From a virus: a stretch of 64,000 nucleotides of DNA. The translations under genes and the position numbers were made by a program. Positions 1 through 25,097 of this stretch are shown piece after piece (position 1 is the first letter of the stretch; the number at the start of each line of letters is the position of its first letter). The stretch covers positions 32,001 to 96,000 of IMG/VR virus record IMGVR_UViG_3300031784_000013. One strand, 5' to 3'. Under the pieces are notes generated by a model that saw only the letters and a program-made list of their open reading frames with translations, did no database searches and was not told the origin of the DNA.

Positions 1-2269
1 TAAGCTCACCTGATTTAAGACCATGCAAGAAAAACTCACCCCATGATTCTACAGGTTTTCCCCAAGATTTATGATCTCTCCCAAAATTTTTATTTATCAT
101 GTATTGGAGTCTTCTTCTACCTTCTGGAGTATCAATTCTATCAATAGTTTTTTGCTTTAATTCTTGAAGCAAATCCATGTGAGGATGATCCAATTCTGTA
201 TATGGAAGTTGTGGTTGATTAGGAACAGTTGATGCGTTAGGAGTGGAAGAGGCTAATACATTATCTGCCATCATTTGAGGAGATGGTGCTTGTGAAATAG
301 CTATATTGTCAATGCCTTTAACAAGGTTTTGACCAATACCTTTTAAACTTAGTCTGCCAATATCATCAATCATACCTACACCAGGTATAGCATTGACTGG
401 GTCTCCAAGAGCATCCAATCCAAAATTAAAAGCATTCTTTCCAAATGATGAATAGCTATCTAGCCAACCACCAGGTTTTTGAAATCCCCATGCTTGAGAA
501 GGTGTTTGTTCTTTTCCTGTAATCAACTGCATCATCTCCTTTTGTGGAGCACCCATCAGCTCACCAACATGTCCATAGAGATTTGCCATTCCCTGAGACA
601 TTGCATTTTTTATACGTTCATCCTTACCCTCTACAACAATCTCAGGAAGTTCCATACCTTCATAAATCTTCCCACCTTCTTGCATACTCTTTGGTTTCCA
701 ATCAAGGCCATTCTGATAGAATCTCATTTCTTGACCATTCTGTGCAGAAGCCATTGTCTTCTTTGCATATTTACCTTTGCTAGGAGCAGCACCAGCTACA
801 CGTGCGTATGTGAATCCTACAGAGCCAGGCATAGAAGCACCATTCATTGCAATAGGCGCAACTTCTTCATTACCTTTGGCAATAACATTCATCAACTTAA
901 TTAAACCGCTTTCGCCAGCCGCTTGAATAGTTCTATCGAGTGATTGATTACCTTTTAGTTTTTCCTTGGCTCTTTCTAAATCTTCTTTTGTAAACTCTTT
1001 CCCTTTTCTAATATCATAAACCCCTTTATCAAACATTAGATATCGAAGAGCATTCAAGTCACTTTTGAATTCTTGAGGATCATTTCTTATATGTAAGGCT
1101 TGAGATCTTCTTATATCATCTTTTTGATTAATAGGTTGATAATTTCCTGTAACGGGATCTATAGTATAAAATGATTTATTAAACTCTGAAAACGGCAACA
1201 TTGTAGACGTTATTAACGAATCTTCAAAAGCAGTAGTATTATCTATTGCATGTCCAATTTCATGAGCTAGAACAGTTTCAAACATTTCAGGAGTCTTAGT
1301 ATGATCTGGATGTATTTCAATACCAAGTCCTGTATAGCGAGAAGCAGGTCGTCCTTTATAATAAGATGGTTCAATTTGAATAAATCCAGGCTCTTGAACT
1401 GATTCTAATGCACCCATTCTTGATTCTCTAGCACTAGATAGCCATTCTCCCATTTGAGGACGTATAGTTGATCCTTCTTTACGATAGATAGCGTTCCCTG
1501 GCACGTCTTCATAGTATCCAGTGTTCTTCATACGTCTTTCGTACTCTGGACTAGAAACCCACGACTTGTAGAATTCAGCCATGTCCCATCCTGGAATATC
1601 TGTATTATCTCCTGACTTTGGTATATACTGGGGATAACCAGTTAATTTATCAGGATCATTATACTTAGTCATTATTGGAGCTGATACAACAACTTCAGGA
1701 AGGTCATACTCCTTCGCAATGGTTGCATCCTTTTTTTCCTGAATCTTTTTATTCATGTATTCAGAAACACCATTCTGAGCAATTGGAATAATTCCACCTT
1801 GCTGGAAGTCTAATACACCTGTTCCTCGTTTGTAATTTTTTGCAAACTTTTTAGCTTTTCTATCTGTAGGAAATTCAATGTAGCTGTTTGTGCTATCAGC
1901 ATAATTGTAAGCATCATCTCCTAAGTACTTTAACTCTCCATCAATATTTCTAATAGTAGGATAAACCCTTCTATCAGCAGATTCCATAAAATGAGTGCTT
2001 CTTCCTTCTTGACCTGGGATTTGAATAGATCCGTAATTGGCATCATACAATCCCTTCACCCAATCAAGATTCTTATTTGCGTTTAGTATTTGATCAATCT
2101 TCTTACCACGCTGGGCAATTTCTCCTCCATACTCAAATTGTCCTCCCCACGCAGGGGAATAGTTTCTTCCTTCTGTATTATATCCTACACCAACAAATCC
2201 TTCAGGAAGGCTAACGTTTGATTCGTTAGCGTTGTCTGCTTTACCAAAGTTGTCTAACCATCCTTTCAT
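1..2269 (-). CDS. Large virion cargo/internal protein with zincin metalloprotease domain (partial, runs off left edge; not in ORF track)
   Basis: Manual translation from ATG at 2269 (MKGWLDNFGKADN...) stays open to the window edge. It contains VLAHEIGHAID (HExxH, ~1250-1264) and a downstream PQEFKSDLNALRY (possible third Zn ligand). It follows the muzzle gene, where crAss-like phages encode zincin/cargo proteins. Confidence 0.8.
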   Translation of the reverse strand, partial: MKGWLDNFGKADNANESNVSLPEGFVGVGYNTEGRNYSPAWGGQFEYGGEIAQRGKKIDQILNANKNLDWVKGLYDANYGSIQIPGQEGRSTHFMESADRRVYPTIRNIDGELKYLGDDAYNYADSTNSYIEFPTDRKAKKFAKNYKRGTGVLDFQQGGIIPIAQNGVSEYMNKKIQEKKDATIAKEYDLPEVVVSAPIMTKYNDPDKLTGYPQYIPKSGDNTDIPGWDMAEFYKSWVSSPEYERRMKNTGYYEDVPGNAIYRKEGSTIRPQMGEWLSSARESRMGALESVQEPGFIQIEPSYYKGRPASRYTGLGIEIHPDHTKTPEMFETVLAHEIGHAIDNTTAFEDSLITSTMLPFSEFNKSFYTIDPVTGNYQPINQKDDIRRSQALHIRNDPQEFKSDLNALRYLMFDKGVYDIRKGKEFTKEDLERAKEKLKGNQSLDRTIQAAGESGLIKLMNVIAKGNEEVAPIAMNGASMPGSVGFTYARVAGAAPSKGKYAKKTMASAQNGQEMRFYQNGLDWKPKSMQEGGKIYEGMELPEIVVEGKDERIKNAMSQGMANLYGHVGELMGAPQKEMMQLITGKEQTPSQAWGFQKPGGWLDSYSSFGKNAFNFGLDALGDPVNAIPGVGMIDDIGRLSLKGIGQNLVKGIDNIAISQAPSPQMMADNVLASSTPNASTVPNQPQLPYTELDHPHMDLLQELKQKTIDRIDTPEGRRRLQYMINKNFGRDHKSWGKPVESWGEFFLHGLKSGEL

Positions 2270-19556: not shown

Positions 19557-21110
19557 TTAGAACTGTGGAATTTCTTCGATTAGAACAGTTCGTGACAAGT
19601 CTTCGATGAATACATCGCAACGATCTTGCATCCAGATTTCATAGCCTGGGAATTTGTTGGCAGAAGACATACCCTGAGACTTAGCAAAGCCAAGGTGGTG
19701 TCTACGTCCATCGATATAACCCCAAGTCATAGAAGGAGCACCTTTCATTCTCACTTCACGAATGTTGTTCACCATAGAGCCATCAGACATTGGAGACACA
19801 TCAAATACCATGAACACTGGAGTTGACTTCTTGTTCTGTCCAAATTCCAAGTTGGATTGAGGAAGATCAAGTTCTTTCAAGTGGATAAGTTCCACACGAC
19901 CAGTTTCACGAGTAACCATTGCATCGAATGCAAAGTTATAAGTGATGTGTTGTCCTTCTCCTTGCATGTATCTGTTTCCAGAATCTGCCATGAAGGTAAG
20001 GCCAGAGTTCAATGCATCAGTTTTCAAAGCCTGCTGGAACACGTCAAAGCCAGCTTCGTTAGTGTACATTTTCACTCGTCTGTCCTTAACATCCACACGT
20101 CTGTAGAACAAGTCTCCAAACACGGAACGGATAAGGTTTGCAGAGAATTCTCCACGGTTGTATTGTACCAAGTTACCATTGTTACGCATTCTGTGATAAA
20201 CACCAGCAGATACACGCTTCAATTCTTGCTTAGATCCATTAGTTTTTACAGTGCCTGGCTTAGACCAGATCATTCGCTTCACCTTAAGTTCAAGCATTGC
20301 TTTTCTCAACATGAATTCTACGAATGGCTCCCACTTAACATCGTTACGAGTTAGAGGAAGTTGGTTTCTACGCTGAGGAGCATACACCAAGATATCAAGA
20401 GGCTTACCAGAAGCATCACGCATAGTCTTGTCATCAGCCCATGCAGTAACTTGGTGCTCAAAACCATATCCAGAACCAAGAGATTCGAACATAGTGATTT
20501 TCTCACCAAGTCTTGGTAAACCAAGAAGGTCCTGATCAAATTCACCAATTGCAGCATCAACTAGTTCTAGTTCAATACCAATTTGCAAGAAGGTAGGGCT
20601 TACAAAGTCTAGGATTGGGTTGTCAGACACCAATGTAAAGGTGTAAAGGAAACCTGCATTCCAAGGAACTGGATCTTTTACAGCATACCATCTTGGACCA
20701 TACTGACGAGAACCTACAGAAACGATAGCGTTCTTAGAGAATTCGTTAGTGTCCAATACCACCTGAAACTCCTGACCATCGATACCTGGCTTGCTCAACT
20801 CAGCAGTGGAGCTAGGGATGTCAATGATTTTAGGGAATTTGTAAGGAACTTGAACGTCCCACTTCCAAGAATCGCTGTTGTTGTCGATGTAGTAAGGAGT
20901 GGACTTGTTGATCATATCAAGGAAGTCGTTGCTGTACAATGAGCTCTGAGTGTACAAGGAGATGATCTTCTTGTCATAGTCAGCTGGCTCAGTGGAGTGA
21001 AACGACTCCAAGTGATTTGAATCAGTTAGCTTTCCTACGGCACGTTTGTCCATTGACGCAACGCGAGCATAGGTAAAGCCTGTTAAACCTGGGATTGTTT
21101 GAATTGCCAT
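19557..21110 (-). CDS. Major capsid protein
   Basis: 517 aa, two genes downstream of portal, followed by a terminator; size and order match crAss-like MCP. Confidence 0.8.
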   Translation of the reverse strand: MAIQTIPGLTGFTYARVASMDKRAVGKLTDSNHLESFHSTEPADYDKKIISLYTQSSLYSNDFLDMINKSTPYYIDNNSDSWKWDVQVPYKFPKIIDIPSSTAELSKPGIDGQEFQVVLDTNEFSKNAIVSVGSRQYGPRWYAVKDPVPWNAGFLYTFTLVSDNPILDFVSPTFLQIGIELELVDAAIGEFDQDLLGLPRLGEKITMFESLGSGYGFEHQVTAWADDKTMRDASGKPLDILVYAPQRRNQLPLTRNDVKWEPFVEFMLRKAMLELKVKRMIWSKPGTVKTNGSKQELKRVSAGVYHRMRNNGNLVQYNRGEFSANLIRSVFGDLFYRRVDVKDRRVKMYTNEAGFDVFQQALKTDALNSGLTFMADSGNRYMQGEGQHITYNFAFDAMVTRETGRVELIHLKELDLPQSNLEFGQNKKSTPVFMVFDVSPMSDGSMVNNIREVRMKGAPSMTWGYIDGRRHHLGFAKSQGMSSANKFPGYEIWMQDRCDVFIEDLSRTVLIEEIPQF

Positions 21111-21134
21111 TGTTTTAAGCTTTGTTTATTTAAT

Positions 21135-22370
21135 TTATAAGAACCATGAGTTCGCTTTTCCAGAATTGCCACCAGAACCAGGTTTTTTACTAGTCTGTCT
21201 CGCAACTTCCTCAAACAACTGAGTTGACTTCTTAGTCACCCCTGTTCTTTGAATGGTAGATAGTGTAGGATCTTTTTCCAAGATTTTCAGAAGAAGTCCC
21301 ACCTTAACTTTTAAAGCGTGATTCTCAGGTCTCTTGAGCTCCAGGATAGTCTTGTCAAAATCTGTCAGGGTTTCTCCTGACGTAGTTTTGTACTTATCTA
21401 CCAAAAGGAAGTCTTGTAGTTCTGATGCCAATTTGGTGTTTAATGGAATTCCATCAAACTCCTTTGTTTTCAATTTGTCTTGAAGGACAGACTGAACGTT
21501 TTGTATATACTGATTTCGAATCATTGCTTTCTGATGAAGATGTTGTTCAGCTTGTTGCTCCATTTGTTGCAACTTTACTGCCTCTTTCTTAACAAGCACT
21601 TTGTGATGCTTGCTAGCAACTGTTTCTAAATCACCGTAGCTTCTAAGCCTTTCAACTTCTGTTGTGATGTCCTCACTATCAAATCCCTGGTCTGCCAGAG
21701 CTTGTTTGATCACCTTCACTTGGTTGTCTTCATTGGACAAGTCCAATTCAGCAAAACTCACTACACTGTTATATACGCCAAAATAATCTTTAGGGTCTAC
21801 ACCCTTTACAAATATGGCATCAAACGCTTTCTGGTAATCCTCTCCAAACTGACCAATGAAATTATCAACAATCTCGATTGCACCTTTTTTCTTCTCTGCA
21901 TTGAACTTCTCCAGGAATTGTTCTGGTGTCTCAATAACTGTATCCTCTTCATCATCATCTTGTGTAAAAACACCAAGTTTGAAAAGGTCCTTCGATAGAG
22001 AAACAAATGGGGATTCTGATGCATCATCTTCTTCTTCATCAGCTTTCACTTCTGGTTTAGCTGGTGCTGCAACATTATCGTCTTCTTCCTCATCATCATC
22101 GTCTCCAAGAAAGTTTTTCAAAACATCTTGTGGAGTGGTTTCCTCACCATCTAGCTTTTGGACAACTTCCTTACCTTTAGAAACTTCTGGTTTTTTAGGA
22201 GCTTGGGGTTCATCAGCTGTCTTTACGATTGCTTCTAGTTTATCAGGATCTTCTGTAGAAGTTTCTGGAGAAAACAAGTCGCTTAACAATTCTGTGTTAC
22301 CCACTCCCATTCCCAACGTTTCTTCAATACCAAAGTTACCAAATGACGGAGTGTCTAGGTTGTCTGCCAT
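21135..22370 (-). CDS. Acidic scaffold-like protein
   Basis: Strongly acidic disordered N-half and helical C-half, between portal and MCP. Confidence 0.6.
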   Translation of the reverse strand: MADNLDTPSFGNFGIEETLGMGVGNTELLSDLFSPETSTEDPDKLEAIVKTADEPQAPKKPEVSKGKEVVQKLDGEETTPQDVLKNFLGDDDDEEEDDNVAAPAKPEVKADEEEDDASESPFVSLSKDLFKLGVFTQDDDEEDTVIETPEQFLEKFNAEKKKGAIEIVDNFIGQFGEDYQKAFDAIFVKGVDPKDYFGVYNSVVSFAELDLSNEDNQVKVIKQALADQGFDSEDITTEVERLRSYGDLETVASKHHKVLVKKEAVKLQQMEQQAEQHLHQKAMIRNQYIQNVQSVLQDKLKTKEFDGIPLNTKLASELQDFLLVDKYKTTSGETLTDFDKTILELKRPENHALKVKVGLLLKILEKDPTLSTIQRTGVTKKSTQLFEEVARQTSKKPGSGGNSGKANSWFL

Positions 22371-22502: not shown

Positions 22503-25097
22503 TTATTTTTTATTGTTTTTTGACGCTCTATTGCTAGCATTTATTTTAGCCACTTCAACATCATTCTTCATGTTCTCTCTAGCAACATTTAGCTTTTCTT
22601 TTTCAAGTTGCATCTTCTGCATAGCCTGATTGTTTTTAGATTGAATATCTTGCATCTTTATTTGATATTCTTGAGCTGCTTTAGACTGCTGCATAGATAG
22701 ATTTGATATCTCTAATATGTCAGGAGTGCCTGATTGATCAGCATCTTGTGTTGCTGCCTCACCTCTAGCAGAAGCATTAATAAGAGCAATCTCTTTCTTA
22801 TTAATTCTATCAAGTTCTTGCTGATAGTTTTGATTAGCAAGTTCTTCTTGTTTCTGCTGTTGTTGTGCTTGTAGTTGAGCAGCTGCAATTTGTTGCTGTT
22901 GTTCAAGCTGTTGCTGTTGCATTTGCATCTGCTGATCCTGCATTTGCTGCTGACGATCTTTGAGAGTTTTGAATGTTTTCTTCATCTCTCTCATAGACTT
23001 AGTGGAATACAATTCTATTACATCATATAGTGTGCCACCATTCTGAATGACAGCCTGAGACAACTGACGCAATTCGTTGAACATTTGTGTATCTTCTGGT
23101 CTGTTTGTTACAAACACTTTCAAATCACGTAGTTTCAAATCATTACCATTCACTTGTATAAATGCAGATTCTCCTTCTGATGTAATGTATGATAGTGTAG
23201 ACATAGGCTTAGCACTCTCTACATATTGTGCAGCATCTACAATAGCCTGATATAACTGACCTAATACATACTCGTGTGCGATGAATAGAGGCTCTGTCTG
23301 GGCATATGACTGACTGACAGCTGTGTTGACACCTGTCGCAGATTCGCTCGCTTGTACGCTTCCTAAACGCTGTCTAGACATGCCTATAAGTTCCCAGCAT
23401 TCATTCTTAAGTTGTAATGCAAGGTTATATCTAGATTGGATTTCACTAGTTCTTGTAAGGTCTATGTTTCTTGCAATGGTGGTGTTAGACACAGCAGCTT
23501 TTGTGTTCTCTGGGCTGTCATCATCAAATATAATACCACGCTCTCTTGCTTCCATTTCCCATACATCTAGAGCATCCTGGTCATCACCATCTTTTAATCT
23601 AGGAACACGTCTAATGTTTACAGAAGCAACGTTACCAATTTCCTTTTCCAACAATTTGTACAATTGATTCATACAAATGTTATATAAAACTTGGAATGGC
23701 TTCATCAAATCCACTAATGACTTAGCTTCTGTGTTCTTCACCTCAAATGTTGTACCTATGATAGGACAATAGTTAAGGATTTTTAGAGGTTTGATGTGGT
23801 AGATGTCTGGACCAATTTTAGTTCCTTGATACCACTGGTTAATCCATCCCCATTCTAGAGAGATTTGTGTAGGTATGGTGCCTGATTTATAGTTTTCGTC
23901 TACAAGAACAGTTTGATCATTACCCATTTCGTCTACGTAGGATAATTTACCAATCTTTCTCTTAGAAATCCAATATGCTCTAACAACAACGTATTTGTAT
24001 CCAAATGAAGACACGTTAGATGTCAAGCCCAAGAAGTCTTTCAAGCCATCATTGTTCTCTTTCATTTCACTTTCAATCATCATTCTTGTCTGTAGGACAA
24101 GAGGATCGAATGTGTCGTATTGAATGGAATCAATGCCTGGTGTAGCATCAGGATTACCAAGATTGGATTCACGAACGTTAATAAGTCCGTAGTCTTGCAA
24201 TGAGCTTCGTAGGTGATCAATCTCTTCTTTAGTAAGATCAGGAATGCTCTCAATAATCTCTGACAATTCCATAACTTGCACAGTACCAGCAGCATACGCT
24301 CCTTGGTTTCTTCCTGTAGGATCAGAAATCCACTTTCTATCTGGTGTTGTTAAGAACCATGTGTTCTTTGGGTTGGCCACTTCTATGTTAAATCCAAGCT
24401 TGGAGTTGTCTTCATAGATGTGATAGAACTCTCTAGCAGAAATAAGCATGTCTCTGAATGCATCTTCACTCTTTTCTTTAAGATTGAATTCTGCTTTCTG
24501 ACATGTCAAAATGTGGTTGGCCCATTTCTCTGCTACAGATGTGTAAGAATCGAGTTGATCCTTCACCTGCTCCATTGTAATTTGTTCTAGCTGCTCTTCA
24601 TCAACTTCTTGACCCTGCATAGCTAGTTTCTCTAATATGCCCTGTCTTGCTTGAGAAATAATAAACTCTTGCAGAACATTTGTTTTGAATTGTAATTCTT
24701 CAGACTGGCTATCATCATCAAATGCCTTTACACGAAATGTATCTGGACGCTTAGATATTTCGCCTACAAGCTCATTGATTGGTGTCGTTACAATAGAATA
24801 ATGTTTTACATAAGCAGGAAGTCCTAGATCGCCTTGTAGTATTTCTGTAAATGATTTTACATCTGGCTCCTGATAAAAGTCCTCCATTCTCAGGATGCCT
24901 TTTACAAGGTCATAATTTTTAACAAACGTGTCACGATTCTTCATGTATTCCGCATATGATTTGTTTGCGAAATAATCCATCGTGTTTTTTACCCAACTCT
25001 CATCCTGCTTTTCTTTCTCCGTCTTAAATTGATCAGGAAAAATGTTAAGATAGGCATATCGTATGGTTGCGTCCTTTGTATATCTAATGATTGCCAT
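22503..25097 (-). CDS. Portal protein
   Basis: 864 aa after terminase; KSLVDLMKPFQVLYN and ELIGMSRQRLG motifs; Gln-rich coiled-coil tail. Confidence 0.85.
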   Translation of the reverse strand: MAIIRYTKDATIRYAYLNIFPDQFKTEKEKQDESWVKNTMDYFANKSYAEYMKNRDTFVKNYDLVKGILRMEDFYQEPDVKSFTEILQGDLGLPAYVKHYSIVTTPINELVGEISKRPDTFRVKAFDDDSQSEELQFKTNVLQEFIISQARQGILEKLAMQGQEVDEEQLEQITMEQVKDQLDSYTSVAEKWANHILTCQKAEFNLKEKSEDAFRDMLISAREFYHIYEDNSKLGFNIEVANPKNTWFLTTPDRKWISDPTGRNQGAYAAGTVQVMELSEIIESIPDLTKEEIDHLRSSLQDYGLINVRESNLGNPDATPGIDSIQYDTFDPLVLQTRMMIESEMKENNDGLKDFLGLTSNVSSFGYKYVVVRAYWISKRKIGKLSYVDEMGNDQTVLVDENYKSGTIPTQISLEWGWINQWYQGTKIGPDIYHIKPLKILNYCPIIGTTFEVKNTEAKSLVDLMKPFQVLYNICMNQLYKLLEKEIGNVASVNIRRVPRLKDGDDQDALDVWEMEARERGIIFDDDSPENTKAAVSNTTIARNIDLTRTSEIQSRYNLALQLKNECWELIGMSRQRLGSVQASESATGVNTAVSQSYAQTEPLFIAHEYVLGQLYQAIVDAAQYVESAKPMSTLSYITSEGESAFIQVNGNDLKLRDLKVFVTNRPEDTQMFNELRQLSQAVIQNGGTLYDVIELYSTKSMREMKKTFKTLKDRQQQMQDQQMQMQQQQLEQQQQIAAAQLQAQQQQKQEELANQNYQQELDRINKKEIALINASARGEAATQDADQSGTPDILEISNLSMQQSKAAQEYQIKMQDIQSKNNQAMQKMQLEKEKLNVARENMKNDVEVAKINASNRASKNNKK

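Follow-up and report, generated by a model that had tools for sequence, protein, structure and literature searches.

A conserved cassette in a modular cargo protein of crAss-like phages carries a peptide resembling the N-terminal arm of the major capsid protein

[quoted passage not shown] The cargo sequence P-G-S-V-G-F-T-Y-A-R-V-A (residues 481-492) and the MCP sequence P-G-L-T-G-F-T-Y-A-R-V-A (residues 7-18) are identical at 10 of 12 positions. Judged from the sequences, the likeness is real, selected and clade-wide, and the peptide may anchor the cargo protein in the capsid. The DNA analyzed, here called the window, is a stretch of 64,000 nucleotides (bases 32001-96000 of a 111,142-bp virus record; 36.9% G+C). 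Both peptides are encoded on its minus strand, the cargo copy at 794-829 and the MCP copy at 21057-21092, which confirms the 10 shared residues of the original prediction. These are the only two copies of the motif in the 111,142-bp genome.

The head genes form a minus-strand block that encodes the terminase, the portal protein (22503-25097; phrog_6547 at 1.6e-108), an acidic and helical 411-residue protein (21135-22370), the MCP (19557-21110; 517 residues), tail ring proteins 1 and 2, a 1876-residue muzzle-like protein and, at the end of the block, the left-edge cargo protein, which runs past the edge of the window. The 411-residue protein, encoded immediately upstream of the MCP, is one that we infer to be a candidate scaffolding protein; PHROG and Pfam searches placed it in an unnamed PHROG and gave nothing further. 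Its gene and the MCP gene share a reading frame, and the interval between them (window 21111-21137) consists of just seven sense codons and two TAA stops. The scanned head-module genes and their proteins yielded no prohead protease. Among GenBank phages the best MCP is 26% identical to that of this genome and a relative of the cargo protein is absent. IMG/VR holds approximately 600 or more contigs having an MCP at least ~89% identical.

The MCP is of the crassvirus type. It matches Pfam PF23898 (Crass_capsid) at 3.6e-25 with 88.7 bits, above the curated cutoff of 27, and its profile matches the crAss001 MCP, gp32, at 1e-68. An AlphaFold2 model (mean pLDDT 81.7) aligned with the crAss001 gp32 structure (7qof_B) over 418 residues with a Z of 20.2 and an rmsd of 4.3, indicating a shared HK97-like fold. 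Within the motif, residues 11-17 were modeled as a beta strand, the first of the MCP, with moderate confidence (pLDDT ~71). The motif is invariant in ~250 MCPs of the clade, barring rare S, M or I variants. Four N-arm residues, P, G, G and R, are conserved in the wider MCP family, and the pattern P-G-x-x-G-x-x-x-x-R is limited to the closer crassvirus MCP subfamilies, to ~40% identity, rather than being family-wide. Both the Pfam profile and crAss001 gp32 align to this MCP only from residue 24-25 onwards, and because gp32 aligns only from residue 24 its N-terminus is not comparable to the present N-arm. Note that the crAss001 MCP chains at the portal vertex (7qoh_A / 7qoi_BA) have 484-485 modeled residues versus 503 in the icosahedral chain (7qof_B), ~19 fewer. 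Processing of the MCP was not reported for crAss001, and the N-arm, cleavage and a propeptide go unmentioned in that paper (PMC10172136).

The likeness is limited to the 12 residues, and the sequences that flank the two peptides are unrelated. The methionine preceding the cargo copy is residue 480 and is therefore an internal residue rather than a start. In this genome the third base differs in every one of the 10 shared codons, as first noticed, but this is an incidental extreme, since the cargo and MCP copies of three other genomes use the same codon at 1-5 of the 8-9 shared residues. When genomes are compared with one another, 23-31% of the codons for identical amino acids differ in the 39-residue conserved segment that contains the cargo copy (hereafter the cassette), as do 32-46% of those in the MCP N-terminus. 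The codons differ between genomes while the residues hold, and both peptides are therefore kept at the protein level, which on sequence grounds means purifying selection with synonymous change left free. The original prediction of a match maintained at the protein level, as opposed to a recent duplication of DNA, was thus borne out by codon differences within and between genomes. Gene conversion was rejected together with recent duplication as the origin of the match, as the codons both differ and vary between genomes.

Several estimates bear on chance. Shuffled proteomes shared an average of 0.115 exact 8-mers. When the first 22 MCP residues were compared with the phage's own genome by tblastn, the cargo site was found at E = 1.8e-4. 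The invariant pattern of the cassette, which was derived from 115 protein clusters with the MCP left out of account, has an expectation of 5.6e-4 occurrences in this proteome and was seen twice, the second occurrence being the MCP N-arm. Once the many comparable peptide pairs are allowed for, we estimate the chance level at ~0.005 rather than 0.0005. Every invariant residue of the first half of the cassette is matched in the MCP arm and the mismatches fall solely at variable cassette positions. Moreover, none of the four N-arm residues conserved in the wider MCP family (P, G, G and R) varies in the cassette.

The cargo protein has 1605 residues (L088:5456-10270, minus strand), of which the first 756 are encoded in the window (2-2269, minus strand) and the remainder to the left of it. 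It begins with a block of invariant alignment columns, residues 1-50 (2120-2269), followed by a zincin-like domain, residues 227-461 (887-1591), that has an H-E-x-x-H motif at 1250-1264, is modeled at a pLDDT of ~90 and is a swappable insert between the N-terminal block and the cassette. The cassette, residues 474-512 (734-850), contains the motif as well as a second half rich in Lys, with x-M-x-G and A-Q-N-G joints at its borders. A second conserved joint block, residues 513-533 (671-733), follows it in most relatives. All of these are encoded on the minus strand. In the alignment of relatives the conserved elements were the 50-residue N-terminal block, the 39-residue cassette, the second joint block and a C-terminal block, with whole modules gained or lost between them. 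Some genomes have MCPs that are 100% identical yet cargo proteins that are only 45% identical. In close relatives unrelated enzyme modules are exchanged in frame between the conserved joints, as in a modular (polyvalent-like) cargo protein, and modules of the cargo protein occur as separate genes in other genomes.

The zincin residues H336, E337, H340 and the downstream E349 are invariant in 87 sequences. Matches of this domain to curated families and structures were weak: Pfam M48 scored 15.5 bits, which is under the cutoff, and the best Foldseek match (E 0.09, probability 0.51) was to the PepO/Zmp1 class. By analogy, the domain resembles the cell-wall peptidase found in podophage ejection proteins and in phi14:2 gp65. 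It is missing from relatives of the L082 type, and 30 of 116 cassette-bearing clusters have no zincin just upstream.

Other genomes of the clade encode a small stand-alone protein of 132-374 residues (L153:2514-2909, plus strand; L125:5738-6511, minus strand; L111:7177-7788, plus strand) composed of the N-terminal block, the cassette, the joint block, a small beta-rich domain and the C-terminal block. As this protein is built from the same conserved blocks, the 1605-residue protein is this core plus enzyme inserts. The core protein gave no usable match in Pfam, in a PDB profile search or in the ESM Atlas, and its match among the PHROGs was marginal (E ~0.004, to an unnamed virion structural protein). 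The cargo protein is thus a thread-like, insertion-tolerant virion protein with cell-wall-attacking enzyme modules. The same W-L-D-(N/K)-(F/Y) motif is found at its start (window 2246-2260, minus strand) and its end (L088:5456-5480, minus strand), and recurs after G-G at internal module starts in relatives. In three core proteins (L126, L309 and L167) an extra N-terminal C-x-C ... C-x-x-C piece resembling a zinc ribbon precedes the W-L-D start. A zincin protein of a sister clade (G010:C1:74675-78868) lacks both the N-terminal block and the cassette and contains many hydrophobic-x-x-G-G joints; since it has the joints without the cassette, the joints are older than the cassette.

Of all the elements of the cargo protein, the cassette is the best conserved. 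The motif was kept in orthologues, as had been predicted, throughout the clade: the cassette was present in all 25 genomes checked of this capsid clade, and P-G-x-x-G-x-x-Y-A-R is near-invariant across the 115 protein clusters. Among the ~130 IMG/VR contigs that carry it the whole cassette is near-invariant, conservation ends right after its end, and the flanking modules fall to 39-45% identity or are replaced. Its position in relatives ranges from residue 3 to residue 1200 and is not tied to the zincin. AlphaFold2 modeling of residues 200-560, using 87 sequences, gave a confident zincin domain (227-461), and residues 463-550, which include the cassette, had a pLDDT of ~30 and were predicted to be disordered. 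Docking of the cassette in the adjacent zincin cleft was also considered and was rejected, as the model places the cassette outside the cleft. In two genomes (L434 and L435) the Lys-rich Y-A-K-K-T part is replaced by an R-R-N-Q-T-D-V-T-D stretch and the first half is kept, and in one relative (P0257) a copy of the second half stands near the N-terminus with no first half beside it. The replacement of the second half in the former and its solitary occurrence in the latter indicate that the two halves are separable.

The genomes checked included fifteen records chosen by the cassette and nine near-complete genomes chosen by the MCP. The fifteen cassette-chosen records had MCPs 91-93% identical to this MCP with the same N-arm, and the cassette was found in nine of the nine MCP-chosen genomes. 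Each of six records tested for copy number had one cassette; the further weak matches were second-half or joint-block segments of the same open reading frame, or the MCP N-arm itself. Five sister-clade records (three of them complete) were examined over their whole length; their MCPs are 63-98% identical to P0004, which in turn shares 64% identity with this MCP. These records contained no cassette and no second copy of their own MCP arm. Their MCP arms are related, with the same P, G, G and R kept and with L for F and other changes. The cassette agrees with the arm of its own clade at 8 of 8 core residues and with the sister-clade arms at ~2-6 of 8 (read by eye). The presence of related arms without a cassette in the sister clades indicates that the MCP arm motif is the older element and the cassette a clade-specific addition, and that packaging of cargo does not generally need the cassette.

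Co-variation of the motif between the MCP and cargo orthologues, proposed as a check of the original prediction, was not seen. The cassette has S in place of T in ten genomes, and in 10 of 10 the MCP arm keeps T. In the unbiased (MCP-chosen) sample the corresponding core residues F-T of the cassette also occurred as N-M, F-M, F-S and M-M while the MCP arm was constant, such that none of these changes was mirrored in the MCP. MCP variants having S or M at the T position are few and lie on contigs too short for pairing with a cassette. The sole M-variant MCP (L209) is encoded on a fragment of 27.6 kb that lacks the cargo gene, and IMG/VR contains no close relative of this MCP. Toleration of T, S and M at the same position in both proteins gives a weak hint of a similar environment.

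A tentative explanation of the likeness is that the cargo copy serves as a short linear motif for docking, which imitates the beta strand formed by the N-arm of the phage's MCP and binds where that strand binds. In HK97-fold capsids the N-arm strand joins the sheets of neighboring subunits, and the combination of invariance with disorder in a peptide is typically a mark of segments that fold upon a binding partner. These two considerations, together with the phage P74-26 and crAss001 precedents described below, are the reasons that a docking role is favored. During head assembly the cassette would become ordered by adding a strand to the surface that normally receives the MCP N-arm strand. That surface could be a neighboring MCP sheet, with the unoccupied sockets around the penton-less portal vertex as the most attractive site; the scaffolding protein and the portal are other candidates. 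Docked in this way, one segment of the cargo protein would stay fixed to the wall of the capsid until ejection. A broader and rather more doubtful proposal is that capsid-arm mimicry is a principle of cargo anchoring, in which the copy would fill the N-arm sockets vacated where the portal replaces the penton, or would bind the N-arm site of the scaffold, and thereby determine how many cargo molecules sit at the portal vertex and in what place.

We infer the binding of the cassette, its partner and its role in packaging from several points: the improbable match, the retention of the family-conserved P, G, G and R, the arm of its own clade being the closest, the selection on both peptides at the protein level, the strong conservation of the cassette relative to its flanking modules, its presence in every genome checked of the clade, and the disorder and strand models. 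The mimic of the MCP N-arm that was originally proposed is supported in part. The peptide is predicted to be disordered and exposed in the cargo protein and to form a beta strand in the MCP, as would be the case for a docking mimic. Against this are the lack of co-variation, the sister clades without a cargo copy, the internal and variable position of the copy, the limitation of the likeness to 12 residues and the moderate confidence of the MCP strand (pLDDT ~71).

An equally tentative explanation is that the cassette is a conserved joint or docking segment having its own partner (for example a tail ring, the muzzle, the portal, or DNA by way of the Lys-rich half) and that the MCP likeness is due to chance or is the relic of an old duplication put to other use. 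Cassette variants that are not mirrored in the MCP arm, and sister clades that have a similar MCP arm and no cassette, are consistent with this explanation. So are the restriction of the MCP likeness to the first third of the 39-residue cassette, the second half found alone in P0257, and the several other equally conserved blocks of the cargo protein that resemble nothing in the MCP. In crAss001 the cargo segments dock on tail and portal parts rather than on the MCP (PMC10172136), and the chance level estimated above, being nearer to 0.005 than to 0.0005, also leaves more room for coincidence. However, coincidence with a segment that has its own partner sits poorly with the agreement at every invariant first-half position, where only variable cassette positions mismatch, and the match hits a conserved functional element of the MCP rather than a random site.

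It seems unlikely that the two peptides are instead the shared recognition site of a single enzyme, either a maturation protease that trims the MCP N-terminus and cuts a cargo polyprotein, or a modifying enzyme. There is precedent in staphylococcal phage 80alpha, in which the capsid and scaffold proteins share an N-terminal motif that is cut by the host protease Prp. In the phage studied here the motif is predicted to be exposed and disordered in the cargo protein and is close to the free N-terminal end in the MCP, the cassette is at a module boundary between recurring x-x-G-G joints, and the same modules are separate genes in other genomes. Moreover, the fused cargo proteins of crAss-like phages are presumed to undergo cleavage (10.1101/2020.03.07.982082). 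The shared-site explanation is nevertheless made less likely by the lack of a protease among the scanned head-module genes, by the zincin being dispensable for the cassette (it is missing from many cassette-bearing proteins) and by the sister clades that carry the MCP motif alone. The AlphaFold2 model keeps the cassette out of the zincin cleft, the metallopeptidase and lytic transglycosylase pair of a cyanopodophage belongs to an ejection protein (PMC12002296), and MCP processing is unreported in the crAss001 work. Finally, we consider it very improbable that the cassette owes its conservation mainly to a role as a DNA homology arm in the recombinational swapping of enzyme modules, the peptide itself being functionless. 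Module exchange does occur exactly at the cassette borders, and the cassette shows somewhat less synonymous diversity than the MCP arm does. In opposition, the 23-31% of differing codons at invariant residues indicate selection on the peptide, and a homology arm has no need of a match to the MCP.

CrAss-like phages load and position megadaltons of cargo protein in their heads, and the crAss001 atlas resolved only a few docked segments. A cargo peptide that copies an MCP arm would give a concrete rule for one cargo contact and a 12- to 39-residue encapsidation tag, which, if the docking explanation is true, would be portable and could load foreign proteins into crass-type capsids. Should the likeness be non-functional, the analysis nevertheless describes a new and widespread small virion protein that has conserved joints accepting swapped cell-wall enzymes and the cassette as its most constrained part.

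Placement of cargo by short peptides has well-known examples. In the T4 internal proteins, which carry a capsid targeting sequence, and in encapsulin cargos, which carry loading peptides, a short linear peptide suffices to place cargo in an HK97-fold shell, and the prohead protease cuts off the T4 capsid targeting sequence. Such peptides sit at the ends of their cargo proteins and are not known to copy an arm of the shell protein, whereas the cassette is internal (the peptide begins at residue 481 here, and the cassette lies at residue 3 to 1200 in relatives). The cargo peptide thus differs from the T4 type, which is at the extreme N-terminus, and from an encapsulin-type loading peptide, in that the cassette, although predicted to be disordered, is internal. 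In comparison with the motif shared in the 80alpha/Prp system, the present motif is near the N-terminus in the MCP only.

Podophage ejection proteins with lytic transglycosylase and metallopeptidase domains are known, an example being A4 gp28 (PMC12002296). Like that protein and phi14:2 gp65 (10.1101/2020.03.07.982082), the cargo protein combines enzyme modules, including a zincin domain, on one packaged protein beside a virion RNA polymerase, and the modules are exchanged among relatives. Unlike the cargo protein studied here, neither A4 gp28 nor phi14:2 gp65 has been described as having a conserved cassette that resembles a capsid arm.

The crAss001 cargo protein C1 (gp45) has short ordered segments that dock on the tail rings and the portal wing (Bayfield et al. 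2023, PMC10172136). By analogy, the present cargo protein may share its general design of short docked segments between long flexible stretches. Like gp45, it is a virion-packaged protein encoded after the muzzle gene, in a gene block with a giant RNA polymerase. The two proteins have no detectable sequence similarity (a PDB profile search was empty), and no likeness to a capsid protein has been reported for gp45. At the portal vertex of phage P74-26, the N-arms of other proteins add strands to MCP sheets and fill the contacts left by the missing penton (10.1101/2025.04.14.648768). Although the P74-26 arms belong to decoration and portal-vertex proteins rather than to ejected cargo, and are not sequence copies of the MCP arm, they are extended non-MCP arms that join MCP beta sheets on the capsid interior, as the cassette would do in the docking proposed here.
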